This document shows, one piece after another, positions 1 to 59,881 of a stretch of DNA of 64,000 bases. A model generated the notes under the pieces. That model worked only from the letters and a program-made list of their open reading frames with translations. It did no database searches and was not told where the DNA came from. Position 1 is the first letter of the stretch. Each line of letters opens with the position of its first letter. Made by a program: the position numbers and the translations under genes. Source of the stretch: a virus; IMG/VR virus record IMGVR_UViG_3300028394_000042; one strand, 5' to 3'.

Positions 1-188
1 GAGTAACCAGCGTCCCGGCCCACGTCGTGCAGCGCCTTCATCACCTTTTTGTATTTGTCAGGGTGCTGTTCGGCTAGTTGAGTGGCCAACGTGCCCATCG
101 TTTTCTTTGTCAGCACGCGCTCGTAGTCACGCATTTCAGGCGGCAAAGCTTCGTTGATCAGAACTTGACCAAGCGTAGTTTTCAGCAT
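1..188 (-). CDS. RNA polymerase beta' C-terminal subunit, N-terminus only (gene continues beyond the left edge)
   Basis: Manual translation from ATG at 188: MLKTTLGQVLINEALPPEMRDYERVLTKKTMGTLATQLAEQHPDKYKKVMKALHDVGRDAGY. This resembles the RpoC segment 'TTVGR.l.n..lP....N..l.KK.l..l.....l...G'. It begins where the 1185-5585 fusion stops. Absent from the ORF track. Confidence 0.75.
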   Translation of the reverse strand, partial: MLKTTLGQVLINEALPPEMRDYERVLTKKTMGTLATQLAEQHPDKYKKVMKALHDVGRDAGY

Positions 189-189
189 G

Positions 190-429
190 TTAAGGCGTCC
201 AAACAAGATTCTGAATTGGTTTTGGCTTGAAGTCTGTAACTACAACTGTCTTATCAACGCCTAACGCGCGTAACACGTTATGGAAATCTTTTTCGCCCGG
301 CGTTGAGTACACAATAGCTTCGTCAACTTGAATAGCCACAAAGATCGGATTGCCCATGTCATCTTCGACAATGATGCTGTGGGCCTTCTGTTCGACTGGC
401 TGCAAGTGATGCTGCGTCTTAACTAGCAT
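190..429 (-). CDS. hypothetical protein, 79 aa, in the RNAP operon
   Basis: ORF is tightly coupled to both neighbours. Confidence 0.7.
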   Translation of the reverse strand: MLVKTQHHLQPVEQKAHSIIVEDDMGNPIFVAIQVDEAIVYSTPGEKDFHNVLRALGVDKTVVVTDFKPKPIQNLVWTP

Positions 430-1162
430 TGCCTGACAGACTCCGGCTAAGCGCCATAACGGCCGCGGCTTTTAACTGCATCTGAGTTGGGCCCGTATAC
501 GACGGGTCTTCAAACTGCACCAAGTCAGCCGGCACCGGTCGGCCGATGTACGACGCAGACTTTGGTTGCTCTGCGGCAAGCCACCACGCGCCCTTAACTG
601 CGCCGGCGTTTGGATCAGCGCCCGGAGGCAGCGGCCCGCCCGGAGGAAGCGGCCCGCCCGGATCCTGCGGGCCAGCCGGGGCATTTGGATCTTGCTGTGC
701 GCCAGCATTGGGGTCTTGCTGGGGCGGCGGCGCCATTGGCCCGCCCGGCAATGCAGACTCAGCTGGCGGGGCGCCGTTGCTGCCGGGAGGAAGTACCAAC
801 GACTCAGGCGGCACTTGTACATTCATGGCGTTCATGATCGCCGTAAGCTGCTGCTGCATGTTGTACAGCCGGAAGTCGATCATCTTCATCATGTCTTCAG
901 GCTTGGGTTTCTGCGCTGCAGGCGCAGCCGCCGGGGCCACTGGCGCAGCAGCGGCTACGGGAGCCTGCGGTTGCATAGCGCTCATTGCGGCGGCATTTGG
1001 GTCCATCGGCGGCGCGCCGCCCATCGACGGATCAGCTGGAGGTGCCGCGCCGGCCATTGCCGGATCCATTGGAGGTGCGCCGCCCATCATAGGGGGGCCG
1101 TCAGCCTGCTTCGCAAAATACGCGCGGGCAATCGAGATCAGTTCTGGATTAACGGTGTGCAT
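419..1162 (-). CDS. Pro/Gly/Ala/Met-rich low-complexity protein with KxA motifs
   Basis: GGAGG RBS before ATG at 1162; MGGAPPMDP and QQDPNA repeats; KQA and KSA motifs. Confidence 0.7.
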   Translation of the reverse strand: MHTVNPELISIARAYFAKQADGPPMMGGAPPMDPAMAGAAPPADPSMGGAPPMDPNAAAMSAMQPQAPVAAAAPVAPAAAPAAQKPKPEDMMKMIDFRLYNMQQQLTAIMNAMNVQVPPESLVLPPGSNGAPPAESALPGGPMAPPPQQDPNAGAQQDPNAPAGPQDPGGPLPPGGPLPPGADPNAGAVKGAWWLAAEQPKSASYIGRPVPADLVQFEDPSYTGPTQMQLKAAAVMALSRSLSGNAS

Positions 1163-1184
1163 AGAAACCTCCATGTTGAGCACG

Positions 1185-4100
1185 TCATGTATTATCTTCC
1201 ACAATATGTACCGGGGTGTCCACTTCTATTTCCCCGCGGTGATAGGCGTGAACAGCGTCTTTCTTTGTGCGATACACCCGCGGTTTAGCTTTGTTGTTGA
1301 TCCGACTAGCCGCCAAATACAGGCCAGTCTGATAATCTTTGTTCGGCACGTAATGCGCTTTGAACGACGAAGCCGAGAATAAATTCTTGCTCGGCAGCAT
1401 TTTCTCGACGGCTTCTTTTGCGGCGTCTTCGGTGCTGGGCACGTGATACTGCATAGCGTCGCCGTCAAAATCTGCGCCGAAACCCTTGGTGATAACCGGG
1501 TTAACTTCCATGACTTTGTTCTTGGTGAGCCGCGGATAGAACGCCATCATGCCATACCGGTGCAACACAGGCGCGCGGTTAATCACAATTGGCCGGCTGT
1601 TCATTTGCGTGTTCAACTCGTCTGCGGCCGCTTTGCTCTTGTCAACAACAGCCTGTAACGCCTGCATTCTTGGTAAGCCGCGGCGCACAAGGCCACGCAC
1701 AACGAATGGCTTGTAGATATCCCACGCTTTTTCTTCTGGCAAGGCTACTTCGTCCATGTCCAAGTCTGGGTTGGGCGTAATGACAGCACGCCCGACAAGA
1801 TCGACTGTGCTGCTGAGAAGTTTACGCTGCATTGTGCCGTACTTGGGGGAGTTGCCAAATACGTGCGACAGGAAACCTTTTACGTTACGCTCGACGTTTT
1901 TGGGCTGCTGCGGATCACCCAACCCAGTCACGGCCTTCAGCGAGTCGTATACGCCCAGACGCTCGTCGCTATATTCAGACAGTGCACCAGATGCTTCTTT
2001 CAGCGCGCCGTTAGCGTCCAGCAGCTCTTTGTACAGATAGTTAGCGTCAGCCACGAGCGGTAGTTTCTTGGGGCCCATCGTAGATACGGGCCTGAAGATT
2101 GGCGGCAGTACGGGGACTTTAGTCAGCATCCAGTCTTTCGGATGCACGCCGGTAGCCTGCGAACTCTTGAGGAAACCCAATCGGCGCACAGCCGCGTCAC
2201 GAAGAGTACTCCGCCCGCTTTTGATATCTTCACGGGCTTGCTCTATGGCGTGCGGGACGTTTACTTTGGCCAAGGCTTTTTGAATTGCCTGCGGGCCAGT
2301 TGAGTCAAACAACGTCGCTTGGCCAGCCAGTACGCCGCGGAACTGCTTCTCTGTCAGACCCAACACGCGCCTAATCGGGTCTTCCATGATTGGGTTGGGC
2401 ATTGGCTCGTGCAGCGTAATCTTCGACCAGCGATTGCCGCCGTGTCCGCCTGTCAGCGCCTCGTCAAACAAGCCGCCCGGAACTGGCTTCATGCGCCCCT
2501 TCCAGTCCACAGTCTCAGAGTTCTGGATTTCGCGCGTACCAGATAGCTGATCGACGTCTTTATCCGTCATCGCCATGATGTTCGTCTTTGTGCCTTGCCG
2601 CGTCACGTTGATTCCAGACGCGCGCAGCTGGCCGACAAACTTCTCGTACACATGCGGGATCTTCGGAAGCGGCGGGGCGTAACCAGCCATAAACTGCGAC
2701 CAGTAATCAGGATTAGCTTGCCCGCGCACCATTTTGGCATCACGGATAACTTTGCCGGCACCGTGAGACAACAGCGCGCCAAGGTCCAGCATGCCGACGC
2801 GCTTTGCACCTTCCGAGCCGCCCTTTGCTGGCGTACCCTCGGCGGTGTAACTTCCCATTGACCGGCCCTGCGCCTTGGATTCGCTGGTGTGGTGCAGCTT
2901 CATGAAGAACCGGCTGCCAGTTAACACACCCGGAATCTTGCGGCCTGTTTCAGGGTCAAACAGGTCTTCTTTGTCAGATAGGCCGTGCTTGTCCAACTCA
3001 CTCTGGGCAAAATCAATCAGACTGTTTTGGTTGTCGAAGTCTTTGATCTTGTACGGCTTACCGGTCTTGTCCGCTACTTTACCCAGCGTAGCCTCAATGA
3101 CCTGCGCTGGATTTACGCGGCTGATTAAACCAAGTGGACTAACCAGCACTTCAAATGGGTTGCCGTCTTTATCATGCGGCATCTGGTGATCTGGCACAAT
3201 TTCGGCAATCACACCCTTGTCGCCAAATCTACCTGTGAGCTTGTCGCCAACTTCCATGACCGACTGGTTTTTTACAACAACGCTCACGCCCTTGTCTGTG
3301 TGCTCTACGTCGGTAACAACCCCGGGCGAATGATGATCCCACGTCACGGTTTCGTCTGTGAAACTACCAGCACGACCGCGATGCACTTTGCCGTACACCG
3401 TGTCTTTTTTCTTCGCGACAAGCACAAGGGGATCGCCGTAGTTAACAGTTGTGCCCTTTTGAATAGCGCCTTTGTCGTCAAAGTTGTCGAGCAGCTTCTT
3501 GTCGTACACAGCGGGAAACAAGCTGGTAAAAGCTTTCTTGCCTACGTGCGTGTTCTCGTCCCATTGCGCTTCATGCTGGTACATGTGCTCGCTGGTCAGA
3601 CGCTTGGCCGCACTCTCTGAGATCACGCTGGCGTCTTCGTAGTTCTTGCCTCTAAACGGCAGATAGGCCACGCGCATGTTCAAGCCAAGTGCTGCGCTAC
3701 CCTTGTCGTCCGTGAAGTTAGACCGCGCAAGAAGCTGGCCGGGTTTTACAACGTCGCCGGGCTGAACCATCGGCGTCTGGTGTAAAAACGTCTTCCGGTT
3801 GTACGGCATGTCGTTGTACAGCTCGATAGTCTTCTTGTTGCCGTCTTTATCGCGCAGCACAATTCCATCAGGAGACACCGACACAACCTGCCCGTGTGCT
3901 TCTGCGCGCGTAGCTCCAAGCCGCGTACCCATCTCGTCTTCGTGCGATGTGGTAGGGTCGTCTGCTGTGGCTGATTGGACATGCGGGGCCTGCGCGCCAA
4001 CGAGCGGCAGTGCTTGGGTGAACATGCGCGAACCCATGATGACGCGGTGGCCTTTCACCATGGTCTTCATCGGCACCATGTTGCTCAAGCTAGACAGCGT

Positions 4101-5585
4101 TGAGTCCATGTGCGGTAAGCTGTATTGCGTCTCTTCACGCGGCACATACTTCAGCCGGCCGTTGACAAGCGCAGCGACCACGGGCAACTTGTTGTGCTCT
4201 TCGCCCGGGAACACAAGCGGCGTGTCGGCCAGCTCTTGCGGCGTTTTGAAGATCTTTTCGCCGGTTTTGTTATCTATAACGGGCGTATAGATCTTGCCGT
4301 CAGCGCCCTTCATGGCACCGCGGGCAAAACGCATGTCTACGCCGACTTTTCCGCTCTCTGGTGTGCGGAGATAATCGATGAACCCAAGGTGGCTGGGCTG
4401 GACGCTACGTGATTCAGCGGGCACAGCATCGAGCGACGATATGCCGCCTTCGCCCATGCGCGTAACGCGGGTCTGGTGGTCGTAAATCTCAGCCGGGTTG
4501 ATTTCTTCCAAGCTCGACCCAAGGCCAGAGCCAATTAAGGCAGCTTGAATAGACTTGTCGAACACGCTGCTGGGAATGTGGTCTACGGACTTCTTGGCCG
4601 TTGCGCGCCACAGAAGCTTATTCAGGCCCATGCGGTCTTTGCCAAAACGCTCCGCAATCAGATCTTCAGGGCCAGCGACAGACTGAAACACCATGTTGTC
4701 ACGGTCGTCTGGGTCTGACTCGCGCCTGTTCACAGCCAACAGCTTTTTGGTGATGGCTAAAATAGTTTCAGGGTTAATAGTCGTGTGCCCTGTGCCGAGC
4801 GTGCGGGTTGTGACTTCGGGATCGAGTTGCGTCTTGGCAAACTCGGCCATGATTGCTTGCTGCTTGGCTACAGAATCAGCGCCCTCGACTTGTTTGTTCA
4901 CAAGCCGCTGATAGAGCTTATCCAGCGTGCCGGCGTCGCCCTTCTCCATATTGACTGCGGTGATGTCGTTACCCCAGTGCTCGCGCAGCTGAGTGTCAGT
5001 GACGCCCATTTGCTTGAGCAGCGGCATAAGCGGAATTTGCGCCTGCCCGATGCTGATCTTGAACACGCCCGTAGCAGGGTCGAGAAAATACCGGTGGGAG
5101 CGGCCTTTACCGGGAAGCGTGTTAACGTGCGCTTCGATTTCGCCGTTGTCTTTTTCGCGGGTAAATACACCGGGGCGCAACCGCATCTGGTGCGCTAGCG
5201 TGTACTCGACGCCGTTGTTGACGAACGTACCGGAGTCTGTGAGATACGGCACATGGGCAATCGTCGTCTTACGCTGGCCAACTGTCTCGCCGGTTTTGTT
5301 ATCTATAAGATTCCACGTGCCCTGCATTCGGCGCGACAACGAACTTTTTGTCAGAACTGCGCGCTTCTGATCAACGCGCGTAAACGTTTCTGGGCCAGCG
5401 TAACTAACGTCGGCAAGGTTCAACGAGTACAGGTCGTTTTGTACCGGTTTGATCGTCTGTGCGCTTTTCAGCGCCTGATCAAAGATATTCTGCCGCATAC
5501 CAGACACGTCCCCAAACGCTCGCATGGCGGGCGCGGGAAGTGGTTGCGGCGGAGTAGTAAGCGGCGGCAGTTCGGGCGCTGGCAT
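1185..5585 (-). CDS. DNA-directed RNA polymerase, fused beta subunit + N-terminal half of beta'
   Basis: beta motifs: GTFVNNG, TPESGKVG, GDKLTGRFGDKGV, PLGLISRVN, KLHH..KAQGRS, GAKRVG. beta' motifs: GGLFD, VPVLPPIFRP, VDLVGRAVI, NRAPVLHR, GADFDGD. Confidence 0.95.
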   Translation of the reverse strand: MPAPELPPLTTPPQPLPAPAMRAFGDVSGMRQNIFDQALKSAQTIKPVQNDLYSLNLADVSYAGPETFTRVDQKRAVLTKSSLSRRMQGTWNLIDNKTGETVGQRKTTIAHVPYLTDSGTFVNNGVEYTLAHQMRLRPGVFTREKDNGEIEAHVNTLPGKGRSHRYFLDPATGVFKISIGQAQIPLMPLLKQMGVTDTQLREHWGNDITAVNMEKGDAGTLDKLYQRLVNKQVEGADSVAKQQAIMAEFAKTQLDPEVTTRTLGTGHTTINPETILAITKKLLAVNRRESDPDDRDNMVFQSVAGPEDLIAERFGKDRMGLNKLLWRATAKKSVDHIPSSVFDKSIQAALIGSGLGSSLEEINPAEIYDHQTRVTRMGEGGISSLDAVPAESRSVQPSHLGFIDYLRTPESGKVGVDMRFARGAMKGADGKIYTPVIDNKTGEKIFKTPQELADTPLVFPGEEHNKLPVVAALVNGRLKYVPREETQYSLPHMDSTLSSLSNMVPMKTMVKGHRVIMGSRMFTQALPLVGAQAPHVQSATADDPTTSHEDEMGTRLGATRAEAHGQVVSVSPDGIVLRDKDGNKKTIELYNDMPYNRKTFLHQTPMVQPGDVVKPGQLLARSNFTDDKGSAALGLNMRVAYLPFRGKNYEDASVISESAAKRLTSEHMYQHEAQWDENTHVGKKAFTSLFPAVYDKKLLDNFDDKGAIQKGTTVNYGDPLVLVAKKKDTVYGKVHRGRAGSFTDETVTWDHHSPGVVTDVEHTDKGVSVVVKNQSVMEVGDKLTGRFGDKGVIAEIVPDHQMPHDKDGNPFEVLVSPLGLISRVNPAQVIEATLGKVADKTGKPYKIKDFDNQNSLIDFAQSELDKHGLSDKEDLFDPETGRKIPGVLTGSRFFMKLHHTSESKAQGRSMGSYTAEGTPAKGGSEGAKRVGMLDLGALLSHGAGKVIRDAKMVRGQANPDYWSQFMAGYAPPLPKIPHVYEKFVGQLRASGINVTRQGTKTNIMAMTDKDVDQLSGTREIQNSETVDWKGRMKPVPGGLFDEALTGGHGGNRWSKITLHEPMPNPIMEDPIRRVLGLTEKQFRGVLAGQATLFDSTGPQAIQKALAKVNVPHAIEQAREDIKSGRSTLRDAAVRRLGFLKSSQATGVHPKDWMLTKVPVLPPIFRPVSTMGPKKLPLVADANYLYKELLDANGALKEASGALSEYSDERLGVYDSLKAVTGLGDPQQPKNVERNVKGFLSHVFGNSPKYGTMQRKLLSSTVDLVGRAVITPNPDLDMDEVALPEEKAWDIYKPFVVRGLVRRGLPRMQALQAVVDKSKAAADELNTQMNSRPIVINRAPVLHRYGMMAFYPRLTKNKVMEVNPVITKGFGADFDGDAMQYHVPSTEDAAKEAVEKMLPSKNLFSASSFKAHYVPNKDYQTGLYLAASRINNKAKPRVYRTKKDAVHAYHRGEIEVDTPVHIVEDNT

Positions 5586-5589: not shown

Positions 5590-6483
5590 TCACCCGATTT
5601 GTGATTGGGCAGCCTGCTGCTTTAACGAGGCAATTTCGTCGGGGTCTACGTATGTTGGCAAAATTCCAGCAATTCTCGCTTTTGACTTAGCAGCGTCTTC
5701 AACAGCCTTGGCGTGCGCCCGTTCTTTTGCGCGGTCGTACATGAGCTTGGCGGCAAGCCCGCCCATACCCAGCCCAGTGGCAACATATGCGCCGCCAACA
5801 GCCCCCGGTACGCGCTTGGCTACATCTGTAATGTCATTCAGCCATTGCGGCCACGCGACTTTCTCTGCGGCAGCTTTCTCGACAGCCGTGTCGTACACGC
5901 CGTCTAAGTTGTTCTTGGCGCTGCGGCCCAGTAACGCGTCGTGATATTCTTTTTCGGCAGCGTCGATTTCAGCTTGCCGGTTTTGCTGCTTTTTACGTTT
6001 GTGCAACATGCTCACAAGCCCAGTCCCGCCGGCCAATCCAAGCGCGCCAGCGCCAAGAGTAGCGCCTGTACCGAAAGACGACCGAATAATGTTTGGGTCG
6101 TACGTACCCGGAGACGTCTGGTCGATAATTGGGGAAAGCGGACGCAGCAGATCGATAATCTTGGACGGCAGCATGCCGCCAATGCCTTCAGTTATGTTGT
6201 CGTAAATTCCGGCAAACTTGGCTGGCTCTTCTTCTTCCTTGCGCTTCGCGCGCTCGCGGGCAGCCTGCGACAGACTTCGAGCAAGATAATACAAGCCAGC
6301 AGCGCCAACGCCAACACCCAGCCCAGTCCCGCCAGCGCGCAGAATACGGTCGCCCCAGAAACGCTTAAGATCGGGCTCTGTAGGCGCGCTAGCGCCGGAT
6401 ACAGCGGGTTTTGCTGCATAGTTGCCTGCTTGTGCGCCGAAAGTGGAGTCCATGCCGCCAATTGCTTGCTTCTCTCGCTGCAT
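5590..6483 (-). CDS. Gly/Ala-rich membrane or virion protein with KxA motifs
   Basis: three glycine-zipper hydrophobic segments; KQA, KFA, KAA and KVA motifs. Confidence 0.7.
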   Translation of the reverse strand: MQREKQAIGGMDSTFGAQAGNYAAKPAVSGASAPTEPDLKRFWGDRILRAGGTGLGVGVGAAGLYYLARSLSQAARERAKRKEEEEPAKFAGIYDNITEGIGGMLPSKIIDLLRPLSPIIDQTSPGTYDPNIIRSSFGTGATLGAGALGLAGGTGLVSMLHKRKKQQNRQAEIDAAEKEYHDALLGRSAKNNLDGVYDTAVEKAAAEKVAWPQWLNDITDVAKRVPGAVGGAYVATGLGMGGLAAKLMYDRAKERAHAKAVEDAAKSKARIAGILPTYVDPDEIASLKQQAAQSQIG

Positions 6484-10509: not shown

Positions 10510-11322
10510 TCAGGTTTGCGGAACAAGGACATATGGCCGCCCGTTAATCAACAACGTGCCGTGAATTTGGGGCGCAGCGTCTTTTGTAATTGGGTAACGT
10601 TCGGTGCGGGGGCCGTACAACTTCACAATTTCTTCAATGTCGCCCGTCTGCGGCTTTGTCATGTTCGGGTCGTAGTAGGGCGCCATGAGATTACCGGAAT
10701 TCAAGTGCGGCAGCCCCAAGGCGTGGCCCAGCTCGTGGCAGATCACAGCCACTGCCATGTTGAAACTCCACGACTCAGCCTCGTCAAACATCTGGTCGAG
10801 CTGGATATTTGGCGCTACGCCGCACGGTAACTCACTCCACGCGAGCGTCCCGCCTTTGTTATCTAAACCGTGTTTCGCACCCATGCCAGACCGCGCATAG
10901 ATGTTAGCCAAGCTCTGGTTGTCGACCCGGACGGGGTCTATGTTGCACACCTCTGCCCACTGCGAAAACGCGATGTCGTAGGCTTGCGCGATCTGTTCTT
11001 TGTTCAGACCGGGCAGATTGATCTCGTGGAAGTAGGCTATCTTCTCCATAGGCCACTTGCAGATCTCGCCACCCGGGGCTGTGATATTGAAATCAGGCAG
11101 CCCGCAGCGTGGCCGGTTAATCCGGTGCGCTGTCTTAGGGCCGACCTTGCCAGTGGGGTCCAGACCGTTGAACTCCTGATAAGCCTTGATGGCTTTCTGG
11201 AGTTCTGGGCCTGAAATCTTTTTCACTGCGGCCATCGACTTGTCGCCAAAGTACCCAAGCCCGTGCAAGCGCTTTAAGATATCTAAGACGGGGATGACGT
11301 GCTCAAACGGTTTGCGTGCCAT
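10510..11322 (-). CDS. matrixin (M10) zinc metallopeptidase with PG-binding domain and cysteine switch
   Basis: AIKAYQEFNGLDPTGKVG (PG_binding_1-like), PRCGLPD, HELGHALGLPH, Met-turn LMAPYY. Confidence 0.9.
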   Translation of the reverse strand: MARKPFEHVIPVLDILKRLHGLGYFGDKSMAAVKKISGPELQKAIKAYQEFNGLDPTGKVGPKTAHRINRPRCGLPDFNITAPGGEICKWPMEKIAYFHEINLPGLNKEQIAQAYDIAFSQWAEVCNIDPVRVDNQSLANIYARSGMGAKHGLDNKGGTLAWSELPCGVAPNIQLDQMFDEAESWSFNMAVAVICHELGHALGLPHLNSGNLMAPYYDPNMTKPQTGDIEEIVKLYGPRTERYPITKDAAPQIHGTLLINGRPYVLVPQT

Positions 11323-12204: not shown

Positions 12205-13233
12205 CTATCGCGCGCCAAAAAGCGGCGGAATTATGGCGTGCATCATGCCGCCCCACAAACCCATGTCTTGTAACTTATTCTGGCCCTCGGGTGTTAACCC
12301 GGCCATTGCCGACAGCGCCCGGCCAGCTATGTTAGCTGTGGCTAACCCAACGCCCGCTGACGCAATCCCGTGAATGACGTCAATTGGCCTGATAATAGGC
12401 GACCGCTGGCTGGCGCCGATACCAGACATAAGGCCGGTAGCTGCTGCAGCATATTGCGGCGGCGTATGTGTTTGAAAGCCGTTGGCAAAGCCGCGCTGCA
12501 CATCGTTCCACGCGGCTTGATTGAACTGCGATACGTGCACGTTAGGCTGGTACAGCGGCATTCCCGGGTAAGCGCCAGTGTCGTCATACGACATAGCAGC
12601 TTTTTCTGGTAACTGCTCGTGCGGATATTCAAACGGCGTGTCGTTGCGCGTGACTAACCCCTTAAGCATGCTTGTGCGCATAGCTTTGGCGTTCGAATAC
12701 GCGTTGACGCCGCCAGTTGCCAGCCCGCCAAGCGCGCCAATCATGCCGAGCGTCCGACGTAGTTTACCGCGCTGTATATAACGTTCTGGAAACAGCTGCT
12801 CCGCCAGCGCGCCAGCGCCGTAGCCAAGCCCGCCAGCCAGCAGGCCGGTCATAAGCCCATTGGATAGCGGCGTCGGGCCACCAAGCATGGCAGTTCCAGT
12901 ATTCCACACTGCTGGCAACCCGGGCACTACAGAACCGCGCTTGATAATAATCTCTTTGTCCCAGTCCGGGGTCGTGGCGGCAAACGTCGTCATAACAGGC
13001 GTTTTACCAAGCAGTTCGGCAAGCTTGATCCGGGCGCTATCAGTCGGAAGCGTTGGCCCGTAAACGGTAATTTGATTTGCGCTTGGCGCCCATGTAGCCA
13101 CGCTAGTAGACAGCAAATCAACAGCAACAGCCGCGCGCTCGTAGGCTAGCTTCACGGTAAATGCGTACGGCAGCAGTTCTGCTACGCGCGCAGGCACCAG
13201 TCGCCATTCGTAGAACGTAGCTGTATTTGCCAT
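12205..13233 (-). CDS. Gly/Ala-rich multi-TM putative virion protein
   Basis: glycine-zipper segments; KLA and KAA motifs. Confidence 0.7.
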   Translation of the reverse strand: MANTATFYEWRLVPARVAELLPYAFTVKLAYERAAVAVDLLSTSVATWAPSANQITVYGPTLPTDSARIKLAELLGKTPVMTTFAATTPDWDKEIIIKRGSVVPGLPAVWNTGTAMLGGPTPLSNGLMTGLLAGGLGYGAGALAEQLFPERYIQRGKLRRTLGMIGALGGLATGGVNAYSNAKAMRTSMLKGLVTRNDTPFEYPHEQLPEKAAMSYDDTGAYPGMPLYQPNVHVSQFNQAAWNDVQRGFANGFQTHTPPQYAAAATGLMSGIGASQRSPIIRPIDVIHGIASAGVGLATANIAGRALSAMAGLTPEGQNKLQDMGLWGGMMHAIIPPLFGAR

Positions 13234-13545
13234 TCACTTACCCGACAGCGCCATAAAAAGGTGCAACATGAACCGAACAAACACGACCAGCCACGCCAAT
13301 GCGCCGCTAATAGCTAAAAAAACGACTACGCTCGTGGCCGTGAGCGCCGGAAACAGCTTGTGTACGGGGATAGTCTTGAACAGCTGCCACGCCCGAATGT
13401 AACCCAGTGGGCCGGCTGGCTTAGTTGGCTCTGGCTCTGGTACTGGTGTTGGGCCGGGAGCTGGTTTTGGCTTGGGCTTAAACCAGTCTACAAGTCCGCC
13501 AAGAATAGGCCGCACTGGCTTGCCGTCTTTTTCAGTGTCAACCAT
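13234..13545 (-). CDS. small membrane protein with a Pro-rich linker
   Basis: PKPKPAPGPTP linker, C-terminal TM. Confidence 0.6.
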   Translation of the reverse strand: MVDTEKDGKPVRPILGGLVDWFKPKPKPAPGPTPVPEPEPTKPAGPLGYIRAWQLFKTIPVHKLFPALTATSVVVFLAISGALAWLVVFVRFMLHLFMALSGK

Positions 13546-15073
13546 TTTTGCGCCCACCTAAGTTTTTCAATGAGTCAAAGATATCATTACCGTACATTTG
13601 CGTCGCTTTGTCCAGCGGGTTCATCTGCGGCAGCGTTCCGTGTACAGCAGCCAACGCCATTTGATATCTATACTGCGGGTCGAGCTGCGTGCGGTACATG
13701 TGCATGTTCTGCCGCGAGTTCAAAATGAAATCGCCGCGCTGCTTTGCTTTTGACAAGTGATCCATGACGTTGGCAAACACTGGCTTAGCGTTGTCGTACA
13801 CAAGCGGGTGCTGGAAGTTCATCAGATTTGCAAACTGCTGTGCGTACACGCTGCCGTCTGTGTTGGGCACATTGAAAGCCGCTTTTACGCCGCTTGGAAT
13901 AGTCGTCGGGTCAGTGTGGAACCGGAACTTGGTCGGCATGTGCGTAATGCCCTTGAACTTGGGCGCGTCGTCGTCGATCTGCCAGTCTTGCGGCGACTGC
14001 GACATAAGCTTCCTGAGAATCTGCGCCTTGTGGCCGTAACGCTTGTTGTCAGAGTGATTCTTGGCCGCGAGCAATTCTTCGATGATCTGCGCGCGGGAAA
14101 GCTTCTCTATGAGCTTTTCTTTTGCGTAGTAGGCGGGGTCACTGGACAGGTGATCCTTGGCAATTTCTTTGGCGATTTGATCATTGTCTGTGTGTTCGTG
14201 TTCATCGGCTTGTCCTTCTGCGAGGGCTTTTGAAGAAAAATCCCGGTCGGGAACATTATCAGCTTTTCCACCATGTAACAGGTCTTTTGTTACCGTGCGG
14301 GAAAGTGTGTTAGAGTGCTGTATTTCAGCAGTAGATGCAGCTTTACACCTGCCACAGCCCGTTTTTTTGCATACGCATGTTTCAGGGCACGTGCACGGGC
14401 CAGAACAACCGCACTCGTATGTTGTGTCTGTAGCCGCGGCTGCTTTCAGCTCGCCACGACTGGAACTCTGCATAGGCATACCGTCATCGGTGGCGTTGCC
14501 CTTGCTTATGCCGTTGGGCTGCAGCACGTTTTTACGGCGCGCGGCAATTGTGATGTGAAACTGGTGGTCGCCGTTAGGCATGGGTGACAGGCCGTAGCTC
14601 TTGCGCAGCGCTGTAAGCCCGGGCGCAGTCACGGTCATCACCCAGACTTTGCTGACGTTGCCAGCTTTGGGCGTGAACTCTTCAAGCTTGCCCAGTGAGT
14701 AATGAAACGTGTGGCCGCGCTCGTTGATCTTGTCTGGGCCAATCTTTTCAACTTCTTCGGCAGACATGACAGAGATATGCGCGTTCATTACGTCTGGCTT
14801 GTCGTCGTCGAGGCCCCACACGCCTTTTGTGGGAAGCTCTGCGCCCGGGGCTGTCATGGCGTCAAACAAGCCACGGACAAACGCATTGGGGACAGACAAG
14901 AGCAGCCAATTGGACTTAGACAGATACAGCCGGCCTGAAAACGCGTGGTTTGTGCTGGCCTGCTTGTCGCCCCGGTACAGCCAACCGAAGGCGTTGCCGG
15001 CTACATAGGCCGGATGCTCTCTGAGATATGCCGGATCCCATGCCAAGGGATCGAGGGCTGATAGGCTGTCCAT
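13538..15073 (-). CDS. multidomain protein: 2H-phosphoesterase + Cys-rich segment + DUF5661-like + further domains
   Basis: AHISV and FHITI (two HxS/T motifs); CGCSGPCTCPETCVC; EHEHTD..IAKEIAKDHL..DPAYY. Confidence 0.75.
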   Translation of the reverse strand: MDSLSALDPLAWDPAYLREHPAYVAGNAFGWLYRGDKQASTNHAFSGRLYLSKSNWLLLSVPNAFVRGLFDAMTAPGAELPTKGVWGLDDDKPDVMNAHISVMSAEEVEKIGPDKINERGHTFHYSLGKLEEFTPKAGNVSKVWVMTVTAPGLTALRKSYGLSPMPNGDHQFHITIAARRKNVLQPNGISKGNATDDGMPMQSSSRGELKAAAATDTTYECGCSGPCTCPETCVCKKTGCGRCKAASTAEIQHSNTLSRTVTKDLLHGGKADNVPDRDFSSKALAEGQADEHEHTDNDQIAKEIAKDHLSSDPAYYAKEKLIEKLSRAQIIEELLAAKNHSDNKRYGHKAQILRKLMSQSPQDWQIDDDAPKFKGITHMPTKFRFHTDPTTIPSGVKAAFNVPNTDGSVYAQQFANLMNFQHPLVYDNAKPVFANVMDHLSKAKQRGDFILNSRQNMHMYRTQLDPQYRYQMALAAVHGTLPQMNPLDKATQMYGNDIFDSLKNLGGRKNG

Positions 15074-28309: not shown

Positions 28310-30352
28310 TCAGAGGATTTGCTGCCTCCGTGCGTTCTGCATTTCGCCTTGCTGGAATTCACCAGTGGCTGGGCCAGCACCGGGGCCAACAGCGTTTTCT
28401 ATCTGCTGGCCTTGTTGCCGCACAGCGTCACGCCGCCGAATACGAGACTGCTGCGCTGCCGCCCACGCATTACCAGCGCTATTTTGATTTTGTGCCGGCG
28501 CAGGTGCAGGCGCTGGAGCCGGGGCAGGTGCAGGAGCTGCTGCGGGAGCGCGACCCTGATCCCACGTTAATGGCGACCGCACATTTGGAACGTATGTTCG
28601 AGCTGTCTGCGCGGCACCGCGCGCTGCGTTACCGACACCAGCCACGGCGTTGCCAATAGCCCGGCCAGTTCCGGTTACAGCGTTGCCCACAGCTTGCCCG
28701 GCGCCCGTGACAGCACCAGTGACATTGTTTACAGCGTTTGTGGCGTCGCTGTGCAGCTGGTTGCCGACTGATTGCCCAAACTGCCCGGCGAGATTGGCGT
28801 ATGGCTGCGTGATAGGCTGTGTAAGTTTATGCGCGCCATAACCAATCGCTGCTGCAGCCGGTAATGCTGTCGCAACACGATTAGCGGCACCTGTAGCCGC
28901 GCTACCAAGCAGGTTTGCGCCTTGGCCAGCTACGTTTGCCACGCCGCCAAGCGCAGCCTGCGCTCCGCCACCAACAGCGCGCGCTGCGCCGCCCCAGCCG
29001 CCTGTAGCAGCGCCAGCACTGGCTCTGGCCGCGCCATTCGTCATTGCATCGGTGCCACGCGTTACAAGACCTTTACCGACACTTGAGGCCGCAGAGCCAA
29101 ATCTTCCCGCAATGCTTTTAGCCGCGTTGCCAATTCCGGGTAACACAGTTTTTGCCACAAGGGAACCCAAGCCAGCAGCTTCTTTGTAGTTACCGGCAAA
29201 CTTAACGCCCGCAGAAAAAGCGGCACTGGCTTTCATAGACCCGCTGCTTGTGCTGCTGTTGGCTAACTGCGGCATCATGCGACCCATTGCCTGCGTGTGC
29301 TGCTGCTGGTAGGGATTAGCGCCCTGCACAAATTGCATGTTGGGGTCGCCGCCCAAACCGCCACCTTGCTGCCCAAACAAAGCATTCGCGCCGTTGCGCA
29401 CAAACTGCTGTGCGCCTTGGCCAAACATGCCCGCATGCGCTGCGCCTAATCCGGCCGCGCCAACACCCAGCGCGCCAAGACCCATGCCCAGCCCGCTGCC
29501 GCGTTCGCTGTTTCCGTGCATATACGCGCCCAGCAAAGCAGCGGGCACGCCGGCCCCAATAGCGTAGCGTGCTTCCATCGGTAGGCTGTTCCACATACCC
29601 ATCAAACCGTCACCGCCACCGTTTTGATTGGGCAGGTTTAATCCACCGTTCGGCTGTCCTGTGTACTGCGCAAGTGTTGATGGCGACTTATCGCCGCCAC
29701 CGGTAAGTGCGCTATAACCGCCGTAAGTTGCTGCGCCGCCAGCGCCCAGTACGCCAGCGCCAGTAGCAAGATTCAACGGATTGCGCGGATCTACAGTCGA
29801 CCGCAGCCCGCCAGAAAACGGCAGATTGCGAGACTTAAGCTGCGCCGCCCCAATTGTGCGATTGCCGAGCAGCGCGCGCTGCGTGGCAGGAGTGCGGACA
29901 AAAGAGTCAGCAGCTGTAGACGCATTCACGCCAGACAGCCCTGTACGCACCTCGTCGTCAAGGTAGTTGAGCCCTTTCCGCGTTGTGTTCAACGTTTTTT
30001 GGCCGAGGCCGCCGACAGCGTCTAACGCCTGCCCGGGCAGCGCTTTAACTTTGTCCCACGCCGCGCCGGGGTTATCGATTACGTTTTGGCCCGCCTGCAT
30101 GGCTTGATTACCCCAATGGGCGCCCTGCGCTTTAGCAGCGCGGCCGGCAGCCTGTAACGTAGTAGCGCCTTGAGCTTGCGCGCGACTAAAGCCCTTAGCA
30201 GCCTGCGGCATCGCTCTTGTCGCTGCCTGCTGCGCTGCCGGAATAGCTTTGCGCGCCATTGACACGCCGCCTTGAAGCAATTTGGCCAACGGGCCGGCTG
30301 TTTTCTCGGAATACTGCTGGTCAAGAACGGCAATGAATTCTTGCGGTGTCAT
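28310..30352 (-). CDS. Gly/Ala-rich putative virion polyprotein with glycine zippers
   Basis: EKTA, KFA and KEA motifs; several GxxxG hydrophobic segments; (AP)n tract. Confidence 0.7.
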   Translation of the reverse strand: MTPQEFIAVLDQQYSEKTAGPLAKLLQGGVSMARKAIPAAQQAATRAMPQAAKGFSRAQAQGATTLQAAGRAAKAQGAHWGNQAMQAGQNVIDNPGAAWDKVKALPGQALDAVGGLGQKTLNTTRKGLNYLDDEVRTGLSGVNASTAADSFVRTPATQRALLGNRTIGAAQLKSRNLPFSGGLRSTVDPRNPLNLATGAGVLGAGGAATYGGYSALTGGGDKSPSTLAQYTGQPNGGLNLPNQNGGGDGLMGMWNSLPMEARYAIGAGVPAALLGAYMHGNSERGSGLGMGLGALGVGAAGLGAAHAGMFGQGAQQFVRNGANALFGQQGGGLGGDPNMQFVQGANPYQQQHTQAMGRMMPQLANSSTSSGSMKASAAFSAGVKFAGNYKEAAGLGSLVAKTVLPGIGNAAKSIAGRFGSAASSVGKGLVTRGTDAMTNGAARASAGAATGGWGGAARAVGGGAQAALGGVANVAGQGANLLGSAATGAANRVATALPAAAAIGYGAHKLTQPITQPYANLAGQFGQSVGNQLHSDATNAVNNVTGAVTGAGQAVGNAVTGTGRAIGNAVAGVGNAARGAAQTARTYVPNVRSPLTWDQGRAPAAAPAPAPAPAPAPAPAQNQNSAGNAWAAAQQSRIRRRDAVRQQGQQIENAVGPGAGPATGEFQQGEMQNARRQQIL

Positions 30353-33056: not shown

Positions 33057-34658
33057 CTACTGGCCCAAGCGTCCTTGCAGGGCCAGCGCAGCCTTTTTGA
33101 TAGCCGCAGCTTCCTTGGCTTCTTCTTCTTTGTCTTCTTTGTCTTTCTTAGGCGCAGTTTTCTTCTTCTGCGGCCCAAGTAAAGCTTTCGCACCTACGTG
33201 GCCCATGTAACCGCCGCCCAAAGCGCCCACGCCAGCCCCTAAGCCAGCCCCAAGGCCAGCCCCGGCACGCGTGTTGCCCGCTAATCTACCCAGTAACGCG
33301 CCTAAGCCAGCGCCGCCCAATGCGCCCAAGCCCGCGCCACCCATAGCGCCCATATGTGTTCCGCCGCCGATGACAGCGCCCCGGCCAATACCTTCAGCTC
33401 TGTGGCCCGGCTCGCTAGTCAGGGCGCCTAAGCCAGCGCCGAGTGTAGCGCCGGCCAAGAAAGACTCTTTGCCCATCGCAGAACTAGGCTGACTGGGCGC
33501 AGACGATTTTTGCCACGACGGCTTGCCAAGCGCAGCACTTGTGGCTGCATAACCACCGGCGCCGCCAACCACACCACCCACAGGTGCGCCTATACCAACT
33601 GACATCAAAGCGTTTGCTAAATTATGCCCGTTTACATCATTTTGCGTTACTTTACGCGCCGCAGAGCGTGCAGCGTTAGTCATGCCTTTGTGCATAAACG
33701 GCAGCCGCCGACCTTTGAGCATCATTGCCGCGGCCAAAACACCCAACGGCATCCCGGCCAACGCGCCCAGTCCTGTGCCGGTGCCTTTAACAGCTCCCCG
33801 CGCAGCGCCTTCCATGCGGTGACCTTCAGGAGAAGTCATAGCGCCTAAACCGCCGCCGACAAAAGACGCCATAAGCGCGCTTTTTACCTGATTGAGTGAA
33901 GAAGCTTTTGCCAGCATTGTCCGTTGCGCTGGCGCTACTGGTTGCGGCTCACGCATTTGGCGCGTTGGAACCGGGGCTGCGTCTGATGCAGCACCCAATT
34001 GGCTCAACTGCCGCAGCATACGAGGAGCCTGCGCTACCTCGCCGCCGGCTGAACTACGCATGCTGTTCAGTCGCTGCCGCACCACATCAGCTTGGTCGCG
34101 AGGATGCGCGCTACTTGGGTTGGGTTTATACCCCGGAGCATTGCGCATTTTGTTGCTTTGGCTAAACAGCTTATCGGCCTGCTGCGCCATTGCGCGATCT
34201 TCGCCAGCGGAGAGAGACCCGCGCCCGAACGCAGCATCGCGCCGGCGCTGGTTAAGCTGCGCCAAAATAGCCTTGGCTTGGTCAGACGGATGTAACTCAG
34301 CAGGTTGTTGCGGGGCAGCTGGCTTAGGCGCTGGCGCGGGGCGCGACTTGGGGAAAGACTTAGGATTGGCTGCGACAACACCAGCGCCAGTCGAGGCCAT
34401 GCCGCCCATGCCGCCAGCAGCGTAGGGGATAGTCGGCTTAGGCAGCATTTTGCCAACTGAATCAATTGCTTGCTGCCCGCCTTGGCTAAACAAATCCAAA
34501 CCAGCTTGGGCGGGGCTGCGCCCGGCTTCAGGAGAAACAACGGCCGGCATTGAAGGCGTACTACCCGGTGGCGTCCAAGCTGTTTTTGCCATACGCGCCT
34601 GCGCTTGCGCCAGTAAATTACGGTTAATTGAATTACCGACACTGTTAAGCTGCGACAT
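33057..34658 (-). CDS. Gly/Ala-rich putative virion polyprotein with duplicated modules
   Basis: two HP.DQA..LN..R repeats; two GAxTS..GHR.EG..RGAV glycine-zipper repeats; KTA, KSA and KAA motifs. Confidence 0.7.
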   Translation of the reverse strand: MSQLNSVGNSINRNLLAQAQARMAKTAWTPPGSTPSMPAVVSPEAGRSPAQAGLDLFSQGGQQAIDSVGKMLPKPTIPYAAGGMGGMASTGAGVVAANPKSFPKSRPAPAPKPAAPQQPAELHPSDQAKAILAQLNQRRRDAAFGRGSLSAGEDRAMAQQADKLFSQSNKMRNAPGYKPNPSSAHPRDQADVVRQRLNSMRSSAGGEVAQAPRMLRQLSQLGAASDAAPVPTRQMREPQPVAPAQRTMLAKASSLNQVKSALMASFVGGGLGAMTSPEGHRMEGAARGAVKGTGTGLGALAGMPLGVLAAAMMLKGRRLPFMHKGMTNAARSAARKVTQNDVNGHNLANALMSVGIGAPVGGVVGGAGGYAATSAALGKPSWQKSSAPSQPSSAMGKESFLAGATLGAGLGALTSEPGHRAEGIGRGAVIGGGTHMGAMGGAGLGALGGAGLGALLGRLAGNTRAGAGLGAGLGAGVGALGGGYMGHVGAKALLGPQKKKTAPKKDKEDKEEEAKEAAAIKKAALALQGRLGQ

Positions 34659-34702: not shown

Positions 34703-37069
34703 TTAAGCTCTAGTCGTCTGTGCTGCCAAACGAGCTTTATCGCGTTCTTGCTGCTTTCGGCTGCCTTCTTCGCGCAGGATCTTCCGAAACTGCTCGTTAA
34801 GTTGCTCTTTCTCGCCTGTAAGTCTCTCCAGCATCTCGTCGCCTGTTCTGTGGCGCTTGTACCCCATGAGCTTGCCGATAAAGCTAGGGTCTTCGGAGCT
34901 ACTTAGATATCTTTGAACTGCAACGTTCTTGAGTTCTTCCGGCAACCCTACGTGCGAGTCAAACCGCAGGCCACGACCCTGAGCTTGCTGGGAGCGCGCC
35001 TCGTTCCAGTGCGGGTCCAGAAGCTGAATCAAGCTAGTCCCGCGCGTGCTTATTCCCTCGGCACCAGCAGGCCCGATAAGCAGCGCCCTGAGCTTGCCGG
35101 CGTTGTAAGCGTCTACAGCAGCTTGGCGGGCCTTGGGTGAAACTCCGCCGTGGAAGAATCCATGCGGAATCTTGGCTTTGTCCAGCGCAGCAGCATACGG
35201 CGACAGGCCAGAGTCTACGAAGTTCGAGTAGATGATGGCTTTCTTGCGCTTGTCGCTCTGCAGTGTTTCTTGCAGGTTCTTGAAAGCTGCCTGTAACTTA
35301 GACGACTGGCCGAAAGCTTTCCCGGGGTCTTTGTCTACCCGAAACGGCTGCGTGGAAAGACTCACTTGGCGCAGACCCGACATGAACGAATTGAGCTTGG
35401 CTAACTCTGCACGAGACAACGGGAACTCATGGTCCATCTTCCACAAGAATCCGGGCGGAACTTGCGTCCGAATAGCTTTCTGGATCTTCTGCTGCTCGGC
35501 TGACAAGGGCACCCGAATAGTCTGGGCGTTCACATTCACGCCTTCCGGTGTCTTGCTTGCTTGGTAGTCGACGTGGCCGCGCAGCAACCCACGCAACTCA
35601 TTCTCATGGGCAACAACTGGCTTAACCCCAGCTTGAGCGCCACTGAGCCAGCCCCTGAAGCCCGGCCAGACTTTCTTCTGCCCCACGTATCTTTTCTCGA
35701 AGTCCTCTGGCGTGATCTGTTTTTCGTGTACCAATGAAAGCAAGTTAGCCAAATCACTGGGGTTGTTTGTGATGGGCGAGCCACTGAGCAAGAGAAGGCG
35801 CTTGGCGTTACGCGCTACTTCTGCGGCAGCTTGGGAACTAGCTGCGTTGGGATTACGAAGCCTGTGTGCCTCGTCCATGATGACAGTATCGGGCTGTTCT
35901 GTAAATTTTTTGCCCATACCCAAGCCTGTATACGACATCACTTCAGGATGTGAGTCTGTGAACTTGGCTATTTCCTTGTCGAAGTTGCCCTTGAGGCTAG
36001 CCGGAGCAACAACGCCATACGTGCCGCCGAACTGCTTCTTGGCAGCTTCAGCAGCAGCAAGGGCAGAAAGAGACTTGCCGGAGCCCAAGCCGTGATAGAC
36101 CAGCATCTTGGGTTGGTCTTCTGTGACCTCGTCGGCTACGCGCTGCTGGTGTTCTTGCAGCTGGATGCCGGGGAGGAGGTCGGCCTGCTTCCCCAGCCCC
36201 TGCACGTACTTCTGCATGGCTTTACGTTGGTACTGGTCGAGCATCTCAGTAGTGTCTCCCACTTGCTCTGGCGCAACAAGCTTGCTGGGGTCGATTCCCC
36301 AGTTACGCAAAGCCCAGCCTCTACGTGGCGTGGGGTTCTTGCTGAAAGAGCTACCGTGGCGCGCTTTGAAGCTAGCCCAGCGCTTGATCTGGCGGTCGTC
36401 TTCTTCTGGAATTCTACGGCCACCTGAGTAGCGCTTGTACCACTGCGCCCAGCCCTTCGGGTCATGCTCTGAGACCCACTCAGGCTTCCACTCACCCAAG
36501 CTAGCTAAACGTGGGCCTTGACCCCTGTACAGCGCGTCGTACACACCCAAGCTCTCAAGCTGCTCTGGGGTGTAGTCTGGGGTGAAGTCTGCGGCGAGCT
36601 TGGCCCACGCTTTGCCAGCTAGCTCAGCAAACCGCTTACGCAACGCGGCCTTGTCATCAAACTGCTCGATGTTACGCATGTGGTCTGTGAGTTTTACTTT
36701 ATGCGTCTTTGTGGGCGTCACGTCGTTTGGCACAGCCCAGCCCAGATTCGGGTCGCTTTCAGGCGGTGGCGAATACTGCTCGGAGTCGTACTCATACACG
36801 TTGCCCTCTGGAAGCAGCGCGTTGTCTTTGTGGATAAGCAGCTTTGGATTTGCGCCGCCAAGCACAGCCATGCCTCTGCGGTCTTTGGCTAATGCGTACA
36901 ACGCCGCCCAGTCAATATTGTCAGCGCCGTAGACCCCAGCCGCGCCCATATTTGGCTGCGTGGCTTTTAGCGTAGCCAAGTCAGGCGTTGTCGAGCCGTG
37001 ATAGAACGTCTTGGCGCTTTTTATCCACGCTTTGCCAGCTGCCTGCGCTATGTGTGAAGAGTGTGGCAT
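34703..37069 (-). CDS. polyprotein: ART-like domain + DPxGW..W..Y..GRR domain + SNF2-family helicase
   Basis: FYHGS..GVY; DPKGWAQWYKRYSGGRR..DDRQIKRW; HGLGSGKS, DEAH, SGSP, AGAEGI, QAQGRG.R. Confidence 0.85.
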   Translation of the reverse strand: MPHSSHIAQAAGKAWIKSAKTFYHGSTTPDLATLKATQPNMGAAGVYGADNIDWAALYALAKDRRGMAVLGGANPKLLIHKDNALLPEGNVYEYDSEQYSPPPESDPNLGWAVPNDVTPTKTHKVKLTDHMRNIEQFDDKAALRKRFAELAGKAWAKLAADFTPDYTPEQLESLGVYDALYRGQGPRLASLGEWKPEWVSEHDPKGWAQWYKRYSGGRRIPEEDDRQIKRWASFKARHGSSFSKNPTPRRGWALRNWGIDPSKLVAPEQVGDTTEMLDQYQRKAMQKYVQGLGKQADLLPGIQLQEHQQRVADEVTEDQPKMLVYHGLGSGKSLSALAAAEAAKKQFGGTYGVVAPASLKGNFDKEIAKFTDSHPEVMSYTGLGMGKKFTEQPDTVIMDEAHRLRNPNAASSQAAAEVARNAKRLLLLSGSPITNNPSDLANLLSLVHEKQITPEDFEKRYVGQKKVWPGFRGWLSGAQAGVKPVVAHENELRGLLRGHVDYQASKTPEGVNVNAQTIRVPLSAEQQKIQKAIRTQVPPGFLWKMDHEFPLSRAELAKLNSFMSGLRQVSLSTQPFRVDKDPGKAFGQSSKLQAAFKNLQETLQSDKRKKAIIYSNFVDSGLSPYAAALDKAKIPHGFFHGGVSPKARQAAVDAYNAGKLRALLIGPAGAEGISTRGTSLIQLLDPHWNEARSQQAQGRGLRFDSHVGLPEELKNVAVQRYLSSSEDPSFIGKLMGYKRHRTGDEMLERLTGEKEQLNEQFRKILREEGSRKQQERDKARLAAQTTRA

Positions 37070-46336: not shown

Positions 46337-46410
<74 letters not shown>

Positions 46411-49545: not shown

Positions 49546-49629
49546 TAGCCGGGGCGGGGTATGATCCCGCACGGGATTGCTCCCCCGGGATTTTAAATCC
49601 CGTGCGTCTGCCAATTTCGCCACCCGGCC
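49546..49629 (-). tRNA. tRNA-Leu(TAA)
   Basis: cloverleaf with long variable arm, anticodon loop TTTAAAA, atypical T-loop ATCATAC. Confidence 0.85.
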
Positions 49630-50294: not shown

Positions 50295-50368
50295 TGGAGC
50301 CTCTGGGGATCGAACCCAGAACCCTCGGATTAAAAGTCCGATGCTCTAACCAGTTGAGCTAAGGCTCC
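50295..50368 (-). tRNA. tRNA-Lys(TTT)
   Basis: GGAGCCTTAGCTCAACTGGTTAGAGCATCGGACT-TTT-AATCCGAGGGTTCTGGGTTCGATCCCCAGAGGCTCCA. Confidence 0.93.

Positions 50369-58042: not shown

Positions 58043-59881
<1,839 letters not shown>

Follow-up and report, generated by a model that had tools for sequence, protein, structure and literature searches.

The window examined here is a 64,000-nucleotide stretch of IMG/VR record IMGVR_UViG_3300028394_000042, carried by an uncultured phage of about 200 kb. All window genes lie on the minus strand, at a G+C content of 50-61%, and the first 5,585 nucleotides hold an RNA polymerase (RNAP) locus in which beta is fused to the N-terminal part of beta' (beta'-N), two small genes follow and the C-terminal part of beta' (beta'-C) is encoded separately, a layout that an earlier note had read from the DNA. 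No near-identical phage DNA was present in the phage collection searched, and exact look-up of the fused-chain protein returned no record. The locus comprises the following features.

1185..5585, minus strand: fused beta/beta'-N gene, an open frame of 1466 amino acids with Pfam beta and beta' domains in one chain.

2589..5585, minus strand: beta module, residues 1 to about 999, with the double-psi barrel, GDK...GDKG (780-792) and KLHH (896-899), delimited by BLASTP against Salmonella RpoB.

2568..2615, minus strand: fusion junction, residues 991-1006, GINVTRQG/TKTNIMAM, placed by RpoB/RpoC alignment, hhalign and AlphaFold.

2412..2453, minus strand: site of the deleted beta' zinc-binding domain, residues 1045-1058 (TGGHGGNRWSKITL), located by the gap in the RpoC alignment.

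1188..2588, minus strand: beta'-N module, residues 1000-1466, comprising clamp and dock regions and the catalytic barrel, ending at about E. coli beta' residue 555.

1458..1478, minus strand: catalytic Mg-binding motif GADFDGD, residues 1370-1376, aligned with RpoC NADFDGD 458-464.

419..1162, minus strand: inserted gene 1, encoding a 247-residue Pro/Ala-rich, low-complexity, Cys-free protein, assigned from its translation and conserved position.

190..429, minus strand: inserted gene 2, encoding a 79-residue protein, with its stop one base before the beta'-C start.

1..188, minus strand: first 62 codons of the beta'-C gene (MLKTTLGQ...), cut by the window edge.

L072:3221-6262, on a contig supplying the adjacent DNA: whole beta'-C gene, 1013 amino acids, made up of a 632-residue extein and a 381-residue intein.

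The 1466-residue chain carries both halves of the active site. Pfam placed the beta domains Rpb2_3 at 359-416 and Rpb2_6 at 563-914 (E 8e-53), and the beta' domains Rpb1_1 at 1144-1198 (a weak match) and Rpb1_2 at 1328-1394 (E 2.7e-24), in the same protein, along which lie the motifs GDKLTGRFGDKGV (780-792), MKLHHTSESK (895-904), GADFDGD (1370-1376) and VPNKDYQTGLYL (1413-1424). As reference we took a Salmonella RpoB/RpoC pair from the phage collection and aligned it by BLASTP and profile alignment. BLASTP matched fused-chain residues 98-200, 266-721 and 750-994 to RpoB 113-220, 416-884 and 1040-1337, respectively, with RpoB 221-415 replaced by 65 residues and RpoB 885-1039 by 28. None of the E. 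coli lineage-specific beta inserts is present in the phage beta module; the earlier description of beta as condensed is correct as to length, but the difference mostly reflects the absence of these inserts. The closest solved relatives of the beta part are bacterial beta chains (E 4.5e-70 to 1e-65), and residues 72-1063 of a cyanobacterial beta aligned with fused-chain residues 80-1001. Solved bacterial beta' chains match residues 1069-1462 (E ~1e-49), and hhalign of the fused chain against Salmonella RpoC 1-600 covered RpoC 28-554 with a probability of 100% (E 4e-49). Residue 1465 aligns with beta' 554, making the chain end equivalent to beta' 554-555. The beta part is complete, and the beta' part spans about 18-555 in E. 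coli numbering. The chain contains neither cysteines nor, in this genome, any intein. Open reading frame (ORF), Pfam domains, motifs and RpoB/RpoC alignments agree with the earlier claim that both active-site halves reside in one polypeptide.

The two subunits are joined without a linker. RpoB 1337 aligns with fused-chain residue 994, placing the beta end at about residue 999, and beta' residue 28 aligns with residue 1009 (hhalign), placing the beta' onset at about its residue 18; the first ~17 beta' residues are not present. For comparison, RpoB ends in ...LGINIELEDE and RpoC residues 20-34 read IKIALASPDMIRSWS. In an AlphaFold model of residues 880-1466 (mean predicted local distance difference test score (pLDDT) 76.7; 75-85 across the junction block), residues 992-997 and 1000-1005 form two strands of one hairpin that spans the junction, and the last beta strand is predicted to run into the first beta' strand through a two-residue turn. 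Foldseek searches with this model returned plastid RpoC1, cyanobacterial gamma and bacterial beta' as best matches (E ~1e-28). A short distance into beta', Salmonella residues ~64-100, which form the zinc ribbon (C70/C72/C85/C88), fall in a gap of the phage chain, where GGLFD...TGGHGGNRWSKITL stands instead, confirming the loss of the zinc-binding domain that the earlier note had reported. At the second beta' zinc site the cysteine positions are taken by other residues in the alignment of a homologous beta'-C, P0005. Neither of the two beta' zinc sites of bacterial enzymes is retained, and both the fused chain and the beta'-C extein are Cys-free.

The remainder of beta' restarts downstream of the two inserted genes. 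The ATG at 188, one base past the stop of the 79-residue gene, opens MLKTTLGQVLINE. The earlier note had advised recovering the DNA beyond the window edge, which was done by exact look-up of the 79-residue protein; this led to L072, a 56-kb Logan contig (SRR5211163) with 100% identity to window positions 1-3408 over 3408 nt. Its 1013-residue beta'-C product has Pfam matches to Rpb1_5 (E 5e-16), Hom_end_hint and LAGLIDADG_3. The intein (residues 328-708) is flanked by AAQAL and SEPVTQ and interrupts the trigger loop at its very beginning; it has Cys at position 1, ends in ...VVSN and is followed by Ser. All eight cysteines of the 1013-residue protein lie inside it, and the 632-residue extein is Cys-free. 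P0005, the intein-free beta'-C of a relative (626 residues, 80% identical), aligns from its residue 1-3 with mycobacterial beta' 663-664 and continues to residue 1183, through the bridge helix and trigger loop. Because the L072 copy carries Rpb1_5 and P0005 aligns with mycobacterial beta', the ORF at 188 is homologous to RpoC, which disposes of the concern that it might be an unrelated gene and upholds the proposed restart of beta' at this position.

Profile alignments located the break in beta' closely. Position 23 of the beta'-C profile corresponds to E. coli beta' 593, which puts residue 1 at about 569-571, and TTVGR starts at 572; judged from this alignment, the beta'-C gene begins at the TTxG motif. 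Between the two phage chains only a short surface segment, about 556-568, has been lost. Cyanobacterial RpoC2 residues 5-12 align with profile positions 22-23, indicating that RpoC2 starts at about position 12-18, and residue 557 of the cyanobacterial gamma chain 8gzg_D (626 residues) aligns with phage residue 1460, so that gamma extends beyond the phage stop by ~63 residues. Compared with the gamma/beta' break of cyanobacteria, that of the phage is shifted 12-18 residues upstream. Judged from the RpoC2 onset and the gamma extension, the phage break falls before TTxG(R) and the cyanobacterial break after it, as the earlier note had stated. The beta' split of phages phiKZ and AR9 has been described as 'following the DPBB domain' (the double-psi beta-barrel), and its site is said to coincide with that of cyanobacteria (PMC7598289). 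Both of their C-terminal chains are strongly divergent: AR9 gp154 is alignable only from its residue 188, at profile position 123, and the phiKZ gp74 alignment spans only 57 columns.

The fused-and-split layout recurs widely. The same frame was found at 29 IMG/VR loci with 74-85% identity, on contigs of up to 205 kb, some with terminal repeats. In all 27 loci examined the fused gene and the Pro-rich gene come first; the 79-residue gene is listed in 20 of these loci, beta'-C in 25 and a gene of ~800 residues in 25, and where a gene is not listed the locus is in most cases truncated, or gene calling chose an upstream start in place of the 79-residue gene. A HMMER scan of 1.84 billion cluster representatives (50% identity clusters) with residues 700-1466 as query recovered at least 150 representatives, and among the matches listed all had E < 1e-213 and 44-61% identity. 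The 150 listed representatives range from 667 to 3350 residues, the shortest being fragments; 129 of them give full-length alignments that stop no more than 26 residues short of the end of the window chain, and the same C-terminal motif ends all eight that were checked. Their Mg motif reads GADFDGD in 30 and NADFDGD in 22, so that the initial glycine singled out in the earlier note is present in the window chain but is not a rule of the family. Fusion and break are also found, at ~32% identity, in four cultured phages (Salmonella Arash and Vibrio D69, D148 and D181), and genome sizes across the group are ~180-205 kb. Because the fusion recurs across hundreds of separate assemblies, frame, junction and stop are the same in many loci and in cultured phages, and an independent Logan assembly is identical, we conclude that the layout is real, conserved and widespread, not an artefact.

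We built a quick maximum-likelihood tree of the beta'-N region from a small set of 28 sequences (22 fused-and-split, four bacterial and two unsplit phage sequences, from Rhizobium RHph_Y65 and Vibrio Va2; unrooted). All 22 fused-and-split sequences fell, apart from the bacteria and the unsplit phages, on one side of a branch with a Shimodaira-Hasegawa-like approximate likelihood ratio test (SH-aLRT) value of 99, which is consistent with one origin of the layout. This branch, and the offset of the break from the cyanobacterial one, would in part fit the suggestion of independent remodelling made in the earlier note; phiKZ and AR9 also divide beta' in this inter-domain region (PMC7598289), and their divergence keeps their break from being placed to the residue.

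Inteins are frequent in the family. Insertions of at least 120 residues occur in 124 of the 150 listed representatives, 240 in total at ~20 sites, with up to five per protein. They lie mostly within conserved motifs, catalytic or invariant, with 33 representatives at TPE/SG, 26 at GDKL/TGR, nine at HHTSE/SK, five at the site of the deleted zinc ribbon and 56 around DFDGD. Pfam identified Intein_splicing, LAGLIDADG and Hint domains within them, and the close relatives L014/L024 and L016-L018 have one intein after TPE. Among the junctions displayed, up to four for each site, most follow the canonical pattern: the intein opens with Cys or Ser and closes with ...N, and a Ser or Thr comes after it. 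Cys never follows the intein in these junctions, and with Ser or Thr in that position the exteins remain cysteine-free. Inteins usually persist at conserved sites in essential proteins, and their presence at conserved sites of the fused gene fits a translated, functional chain.

At least 19 representatives (18 including P0030, P0042, P0045 and P0056, plus P0040) have an insert within the Mg motif itself, reading ...GADFDGN/C ... GL(I/V)(I/V)(W/Y)D/T.... Were this a canonical intein, starting with Cys, ending in Asp and followed by Thr, its removal would yield DFDGN, with the third catalytic Asp changed to Asn; the register that gives back DFDGD is without canonical nucleophiles. In Vibrio D181 and D148 the fused gene is broken by ~950 nt with a homing-endonuclease gene (L051 4489-5437 in D181) and is annotated in two pieces, probably through an intron; D69 has no such interruption.

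We surveyed the polymerase's possible partners in five relatives, of which four are estimated to be 100% complete (204-205 kb, two with terminal repeats) and one 95% (194 kb). Each has one Rpb2_6 locus and one Rpb1_5 locus. Searches for alpha (PF01000) and omega (PF01192) gave no match at E <= 1 in these five genomes, while controls came up positive in every one of 14 genomes. A homologue of Arash gp10 with a Sigma70_r3 domain (270-306 residues) is present in all five, ~36 kb downstream, and Sigma70_r2 (Pfam) gave nothing in the relatives. Neither Arash gp10 nor the sigma-like protein of the relatives, used as tblastn queries, matched anywhere in the 64-kb window. The window does encode a candidate motor protein.

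34703..37069, minus strand: SNF2-family ATPase, 788 residues, Cys-free, with Pfam SNF2-rel_dom and Helicase_C; homologue of Arash gp217.

In tblastn, Arash gp217 matched this region with 31.6% identity over 478 residues (E 2e-60). The Arash gp217 gene adjoins the beta'-C gene and its product is present in virions (PMC10585845), and the window ATPase is likely to be a polymerase-associated motor by analogy. In the Arash virion proteome the fused chain gp206 ranks top by spectra (3516, with 100% coverage), above the major capsid protein; gp216, the beta'-C chain, has 1210 spectra, and the sigma-like gp10 and the helicase gp217 were also detected (PMC10585845). The authors suggested a role in early transcription and also raised carry-over of abundant enzymes (PMC10585845).

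These proteins share a compositional peculiarity. Cysteine makes up 1.37% of residues across window proteins, yet it is missing altogether from the fused chain, the beta'-C extein and the SNF2 protein; at that frequency the chance of finding none in 1466 residues is ~2e-9. This Cys-free protein set may mark packaged or ejected proteins. Other large proteins without cysteine, all on the minus strand, are encoded at 5590-6483 (297 residues), 12205-13233 (342), 28310-30352 (680) and 33057-34658 (533); at the other extreme, the 937-residue protein at 53323-56136 (minus strand) has 52 cysteines.

Arash (OQ632216; PMC10585845) offers the closest characterized comparison. Its gp206 (1525 residues) and gp216 (606 residues) have the same fusion and the same break, with beta'-C starting MMTQIITPGA..., and, as in the window lineage, the chains contain little or no cysteine and are accompanied by an SNF2 ATPase and a sigma-like factor. 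Identity is ~32% over 97% of the fused chain and only 24-26% in beta'-C, and the Arash Mg motif reads AADYDGD. Nine genes on both strands separate the Arash polymerase genes; in Vibrio D69, whose 0261/0264 pair has the same junction and the same break as the window chain, two small unrelated genes stand there. The annotation in the Arash paper labels the chains just beta and beta', and the fusion goes unmentioned there (PMC10585845), as it does in the paper on the mReC phages considered below, two jumbo-phage reviews and a 2020 polymerase review. We found no description of the beta/beta'-N fusion layout in the searchable literature, including reviews from 2020, 2021 and 2026, a provisional result in that subscription journals are largely uncovered.

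The arrangement shares elements with several other known polymerases and differs from each of them. Relative to a bacterial-type core, the lysine-bearing motifs of the beta barrel, the beta' Mg triad and the bridge helix and trigger loop (the last two in beta'-C) are all present; the alpha dimer and omega are lacking in the five relatives. The description of the enzyme in the earlier note as bacterial-like and minimal agrees with the bacterial identity of its best solved relatives and with this lack. In Helicobacter and Wolbachia, RpoB and RpoC are fused and the whole of beta' follows (~2900 residues), with zinc sites, alpha and omega kept. The in-frame join of the beta C terminus to the beta' N terminus is common to these enzymes and the phage chain, where it lies at about residues 997-1001, but the phage chain stops at about beta' 555, with a gene of its own for the remainder of beta'. 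With the gamma/RpoC1 and RpoC2 subunits of cyanobacteria and plastids (8gzg, 8syi, 8h3v) the phage shares a cut of beta' in the same inter-domain region past the barrel, and the predicted fold of phage beta'-N matches RpoC1/gamma best. Cyanobacterial enzymes differ in having a separate beta where the phage beta is fused to beta'-N, zinc sites, a large SI3 insert in the trigger loop and a gamma with ~45 further residues that have no phage counterpart.

Resemblance to phiKZ and AR9 extends to a phage-encoded polymerase of beta/beta' type, the lack of alpha and omega and a beta' split past the barrel (at domain level); one version of the phiKZ/AR9-type enzymes is packaged in the virion (PMC7598289). 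In those phages, however, beta comes in two to three pieces and is never fused to beta', whereas the window phage beta is entire and fused; they have two polymerase sets and no sigma homologue by sequence (PMC7598289), whereas the five window relatives have one set. The beta'-C profile scored bacterial beta' at 1e-66, AR9 gp154 at 1e-15 and phiKZ gp74 at 1e-4, and Pfam Rpb1_2 found nothing in phiKZ and a marginal match in AR9 (E 5.5e-4). The mReC phages (Weinheimer & Aylward 2020, PMC7481178) and phages of Kleczkowskaviridae type (Rhizobium RHph_Y65, Vibrio Va2) are tailed, have genomes of ~130-200 kb and encode bacterial-like beta and beta' that align readily, but their beta' is single, unsplit and unfused, with 1127 residues in RHph_Y65 and 1192 in Va2. 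The mReC screen demanded a beta' of at least 800 residues with NADxDGD (PMC7481178), a motif filter that the window chain would fail because its motif is GADFDGD.

Taken together, we consider it likely that the two chains form the phage's own and only DNA-dependent RNA polymerase, with a two-chain bacterial-type core and a sigma-like factor, and that this enzyme is probably packaged and injected. Chain 1 (1466 residues) contributes a complete beta and beta'-N, uniting both active-site halves in one protein; chain 2, from TTxG on, adds the bridge helix and trigger loop along with the C-terminal portions of jaw and clamp, and in this genome it would first have to splice the LAGLIDADG intein out of its trigger loop. 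The covalent beta-beta' link would take over part of the assembly role of alpha2/omega, and promoters would be read with the phage sigma-like protein. Enzyme, sigma-like factor and SNF2 ATPase would be loaded in the capsid, injected and used to start early transcription, a step suggested by the presence of both chains, the sigma-like factor and the SNF2 ATPase in Arash virions. Several points weigh against this reading. The sigma-like gene lies outside the window, and k-mer enrichment in 28 intergenic gaps revealed no convincing shared promoter motif. The virion evidence comes from a relative that is only ~32% identical and whose authors note possible contamination of purified particles. The tree is a quick, unrooted search that includes four bacteria and two unsplit phage sequences. 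Moreover, the sequence holds nothing that forbids cleavage of the fused chain, and the chains might assemble on host subunits, two possibilities taken up below. A bolder version, in which the two chains and the sigma-like protein constitute a self-sufficient, Zn- and Cys-free minimal RNAP whose covalent link replaces alpha2/omega outright, and which is packed in the capsid, delivered through the tail and acts as the sole transcriptase for the whole infection, is one that we put forward only tentatively.

The enzyme could alternatively be a non-virion polymerase, made after infection by way of the host polymerase and serving middle or late transcription, like T7 RNAP or the phiKZ non-virion enzyme. 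We find this doubtful, although it has points in its favour: the gene lies within a long co-directional block with no sign of an early gene, the Arash authors raise carry-over of abundant proteins (PMC10585845), and only one polymerase is present here, whereas polymerase-injecting phiKZ-like phages keep a second, non-virion set (PMC7598289). Against it, the Arash fused chain exceeds the major capsid protein by spectra and was detected together with the sigma-like factor and the SNF2 ATPase (PMC10585845), and cysteine is missing from exactly these proteins across relatives. A hybrid enzyme, in which host alpha2 and omega serve as the assembly platform for the phage chains, possibly together with a host sigma, appears unlikely. 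The phage chains are much closer to bacterial beta and beta' than are the phiKZ and AR9 subunits, and no phage alpha or omega was found in the five relatives; however, the phage encodes its own sigma-like factor, the phiKZ and AR9 cores are active without alpha or omega (PMC7598289), and a packaged enzyme would have to act before meeting host subunits.

Still less probable is that the fused chain is a precursor cut near the beta/beta' junction, for example by a prohead protease, to give three chains and a conventional beta. Phage head and packaged proteins are often processed, but here the junction is linker-free and predicted to form a tight hairpin of the last beta and first beta' strands, it is conserved from the window lineage to Arash and D69, and full beta-beta' fusions work uncut in Helicobacter. 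Peptide coverage of Arash gp206 is, in addition, 100% (PMC10585845). A misassembly, frameshift or pseudogene as the source of the fusion or split can be set aside almost entirely, given an identical frame, junction and stop in 29 viral contigs, at least 150 representatives and four cultured phages, and an independent Logan assembly (SRR5211163) identical to the window over 3408 nt; the corresponding doubt voiced in the earlier note falls away.

Of the two genes inserted between the polymerase chains, the first starts at the ATG at 1162, with GGAGG 6 nt before it, and not at the TTG at 1204; it is kept at the same place in all close relatives, and its protein has no Pfam or PHROG match. The 79-residue product of the second, modelled by AlphaFold as five strands and one helix (pLDDT 79), likewise has no Pfam or PHROG match and no Atlas lead. 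We considered it as an omega-like subunit and rejected this, as the model is mostly beta strand and matches no PDB fold at E <= 0.001. No homologue of it was evident by eye among the small proteins beside the Arash and D69 polymerase genes. PHROGs assigned no family to any of ten neighbouring proteins, and Pfam found nothing in most neighbours.

Elsewhere in the window, all on the minus strand, several genes have recognizable domains. The 344-residue protein at 16549-17583 matches Pfam Volactin over its full length (E 1.5e-62). Volactin is an actin-family protein described in haloarchaea, and by homology the phage protein may point to a cytoskeletal function during infection. Two proteins with many collagen triple-helix repeats (601 residues at 58043-59848 and 1178 residues at 60296-63832; Pfam Collagen, E 5e-46 and 4e-72) are, from their repeats, probably fibre or decoration proteins. 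The 270-residue protein at 10510-11322 combines peptidoglycan-binding and matrixin-type (M10) metallopeptidase domains, a combination that makes it a possible lysis or entry enzyme of unusual type. The 511-residue product of the gene at 13538-15073 includes a 2H phosphoesterase domain of the 'Swiss Army Knife' type, and a group-1 glycosyltransferase is encoded at 51120-52235. Three tRNA genes, Met-CAT, Leu-TAA and Lys-TTT, lie at 46337-46410, 49546-49629 and 50295-50368; Rfam confirms two of them.

Multisubunit RNAP is normally partitioned in few ways, and this layout bears on which covalent connections are dispensable. With both active-site halves in one chain and the bridge helix and trigger loop in a second, it amounts to a natural experiment on assembly without alpha or omega. 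Small and near bacterial beta and beta', the enzyme is a possible tractable minimal model of the bacterial polymerase, and the cultured Salmonella and Vibrio members make the group bench-testable. Screens built on finding beta and beta' as separate, full-length proteins with NADxDGD will partly overlook the group. If the enzyme is injected, it would be a new case of host-independent early transcription; if the bolder version also holds, a large, mostly uncultured lineage would have host-independent transcription unlike that of N4, T7, phiKZ and crAss-like phages.

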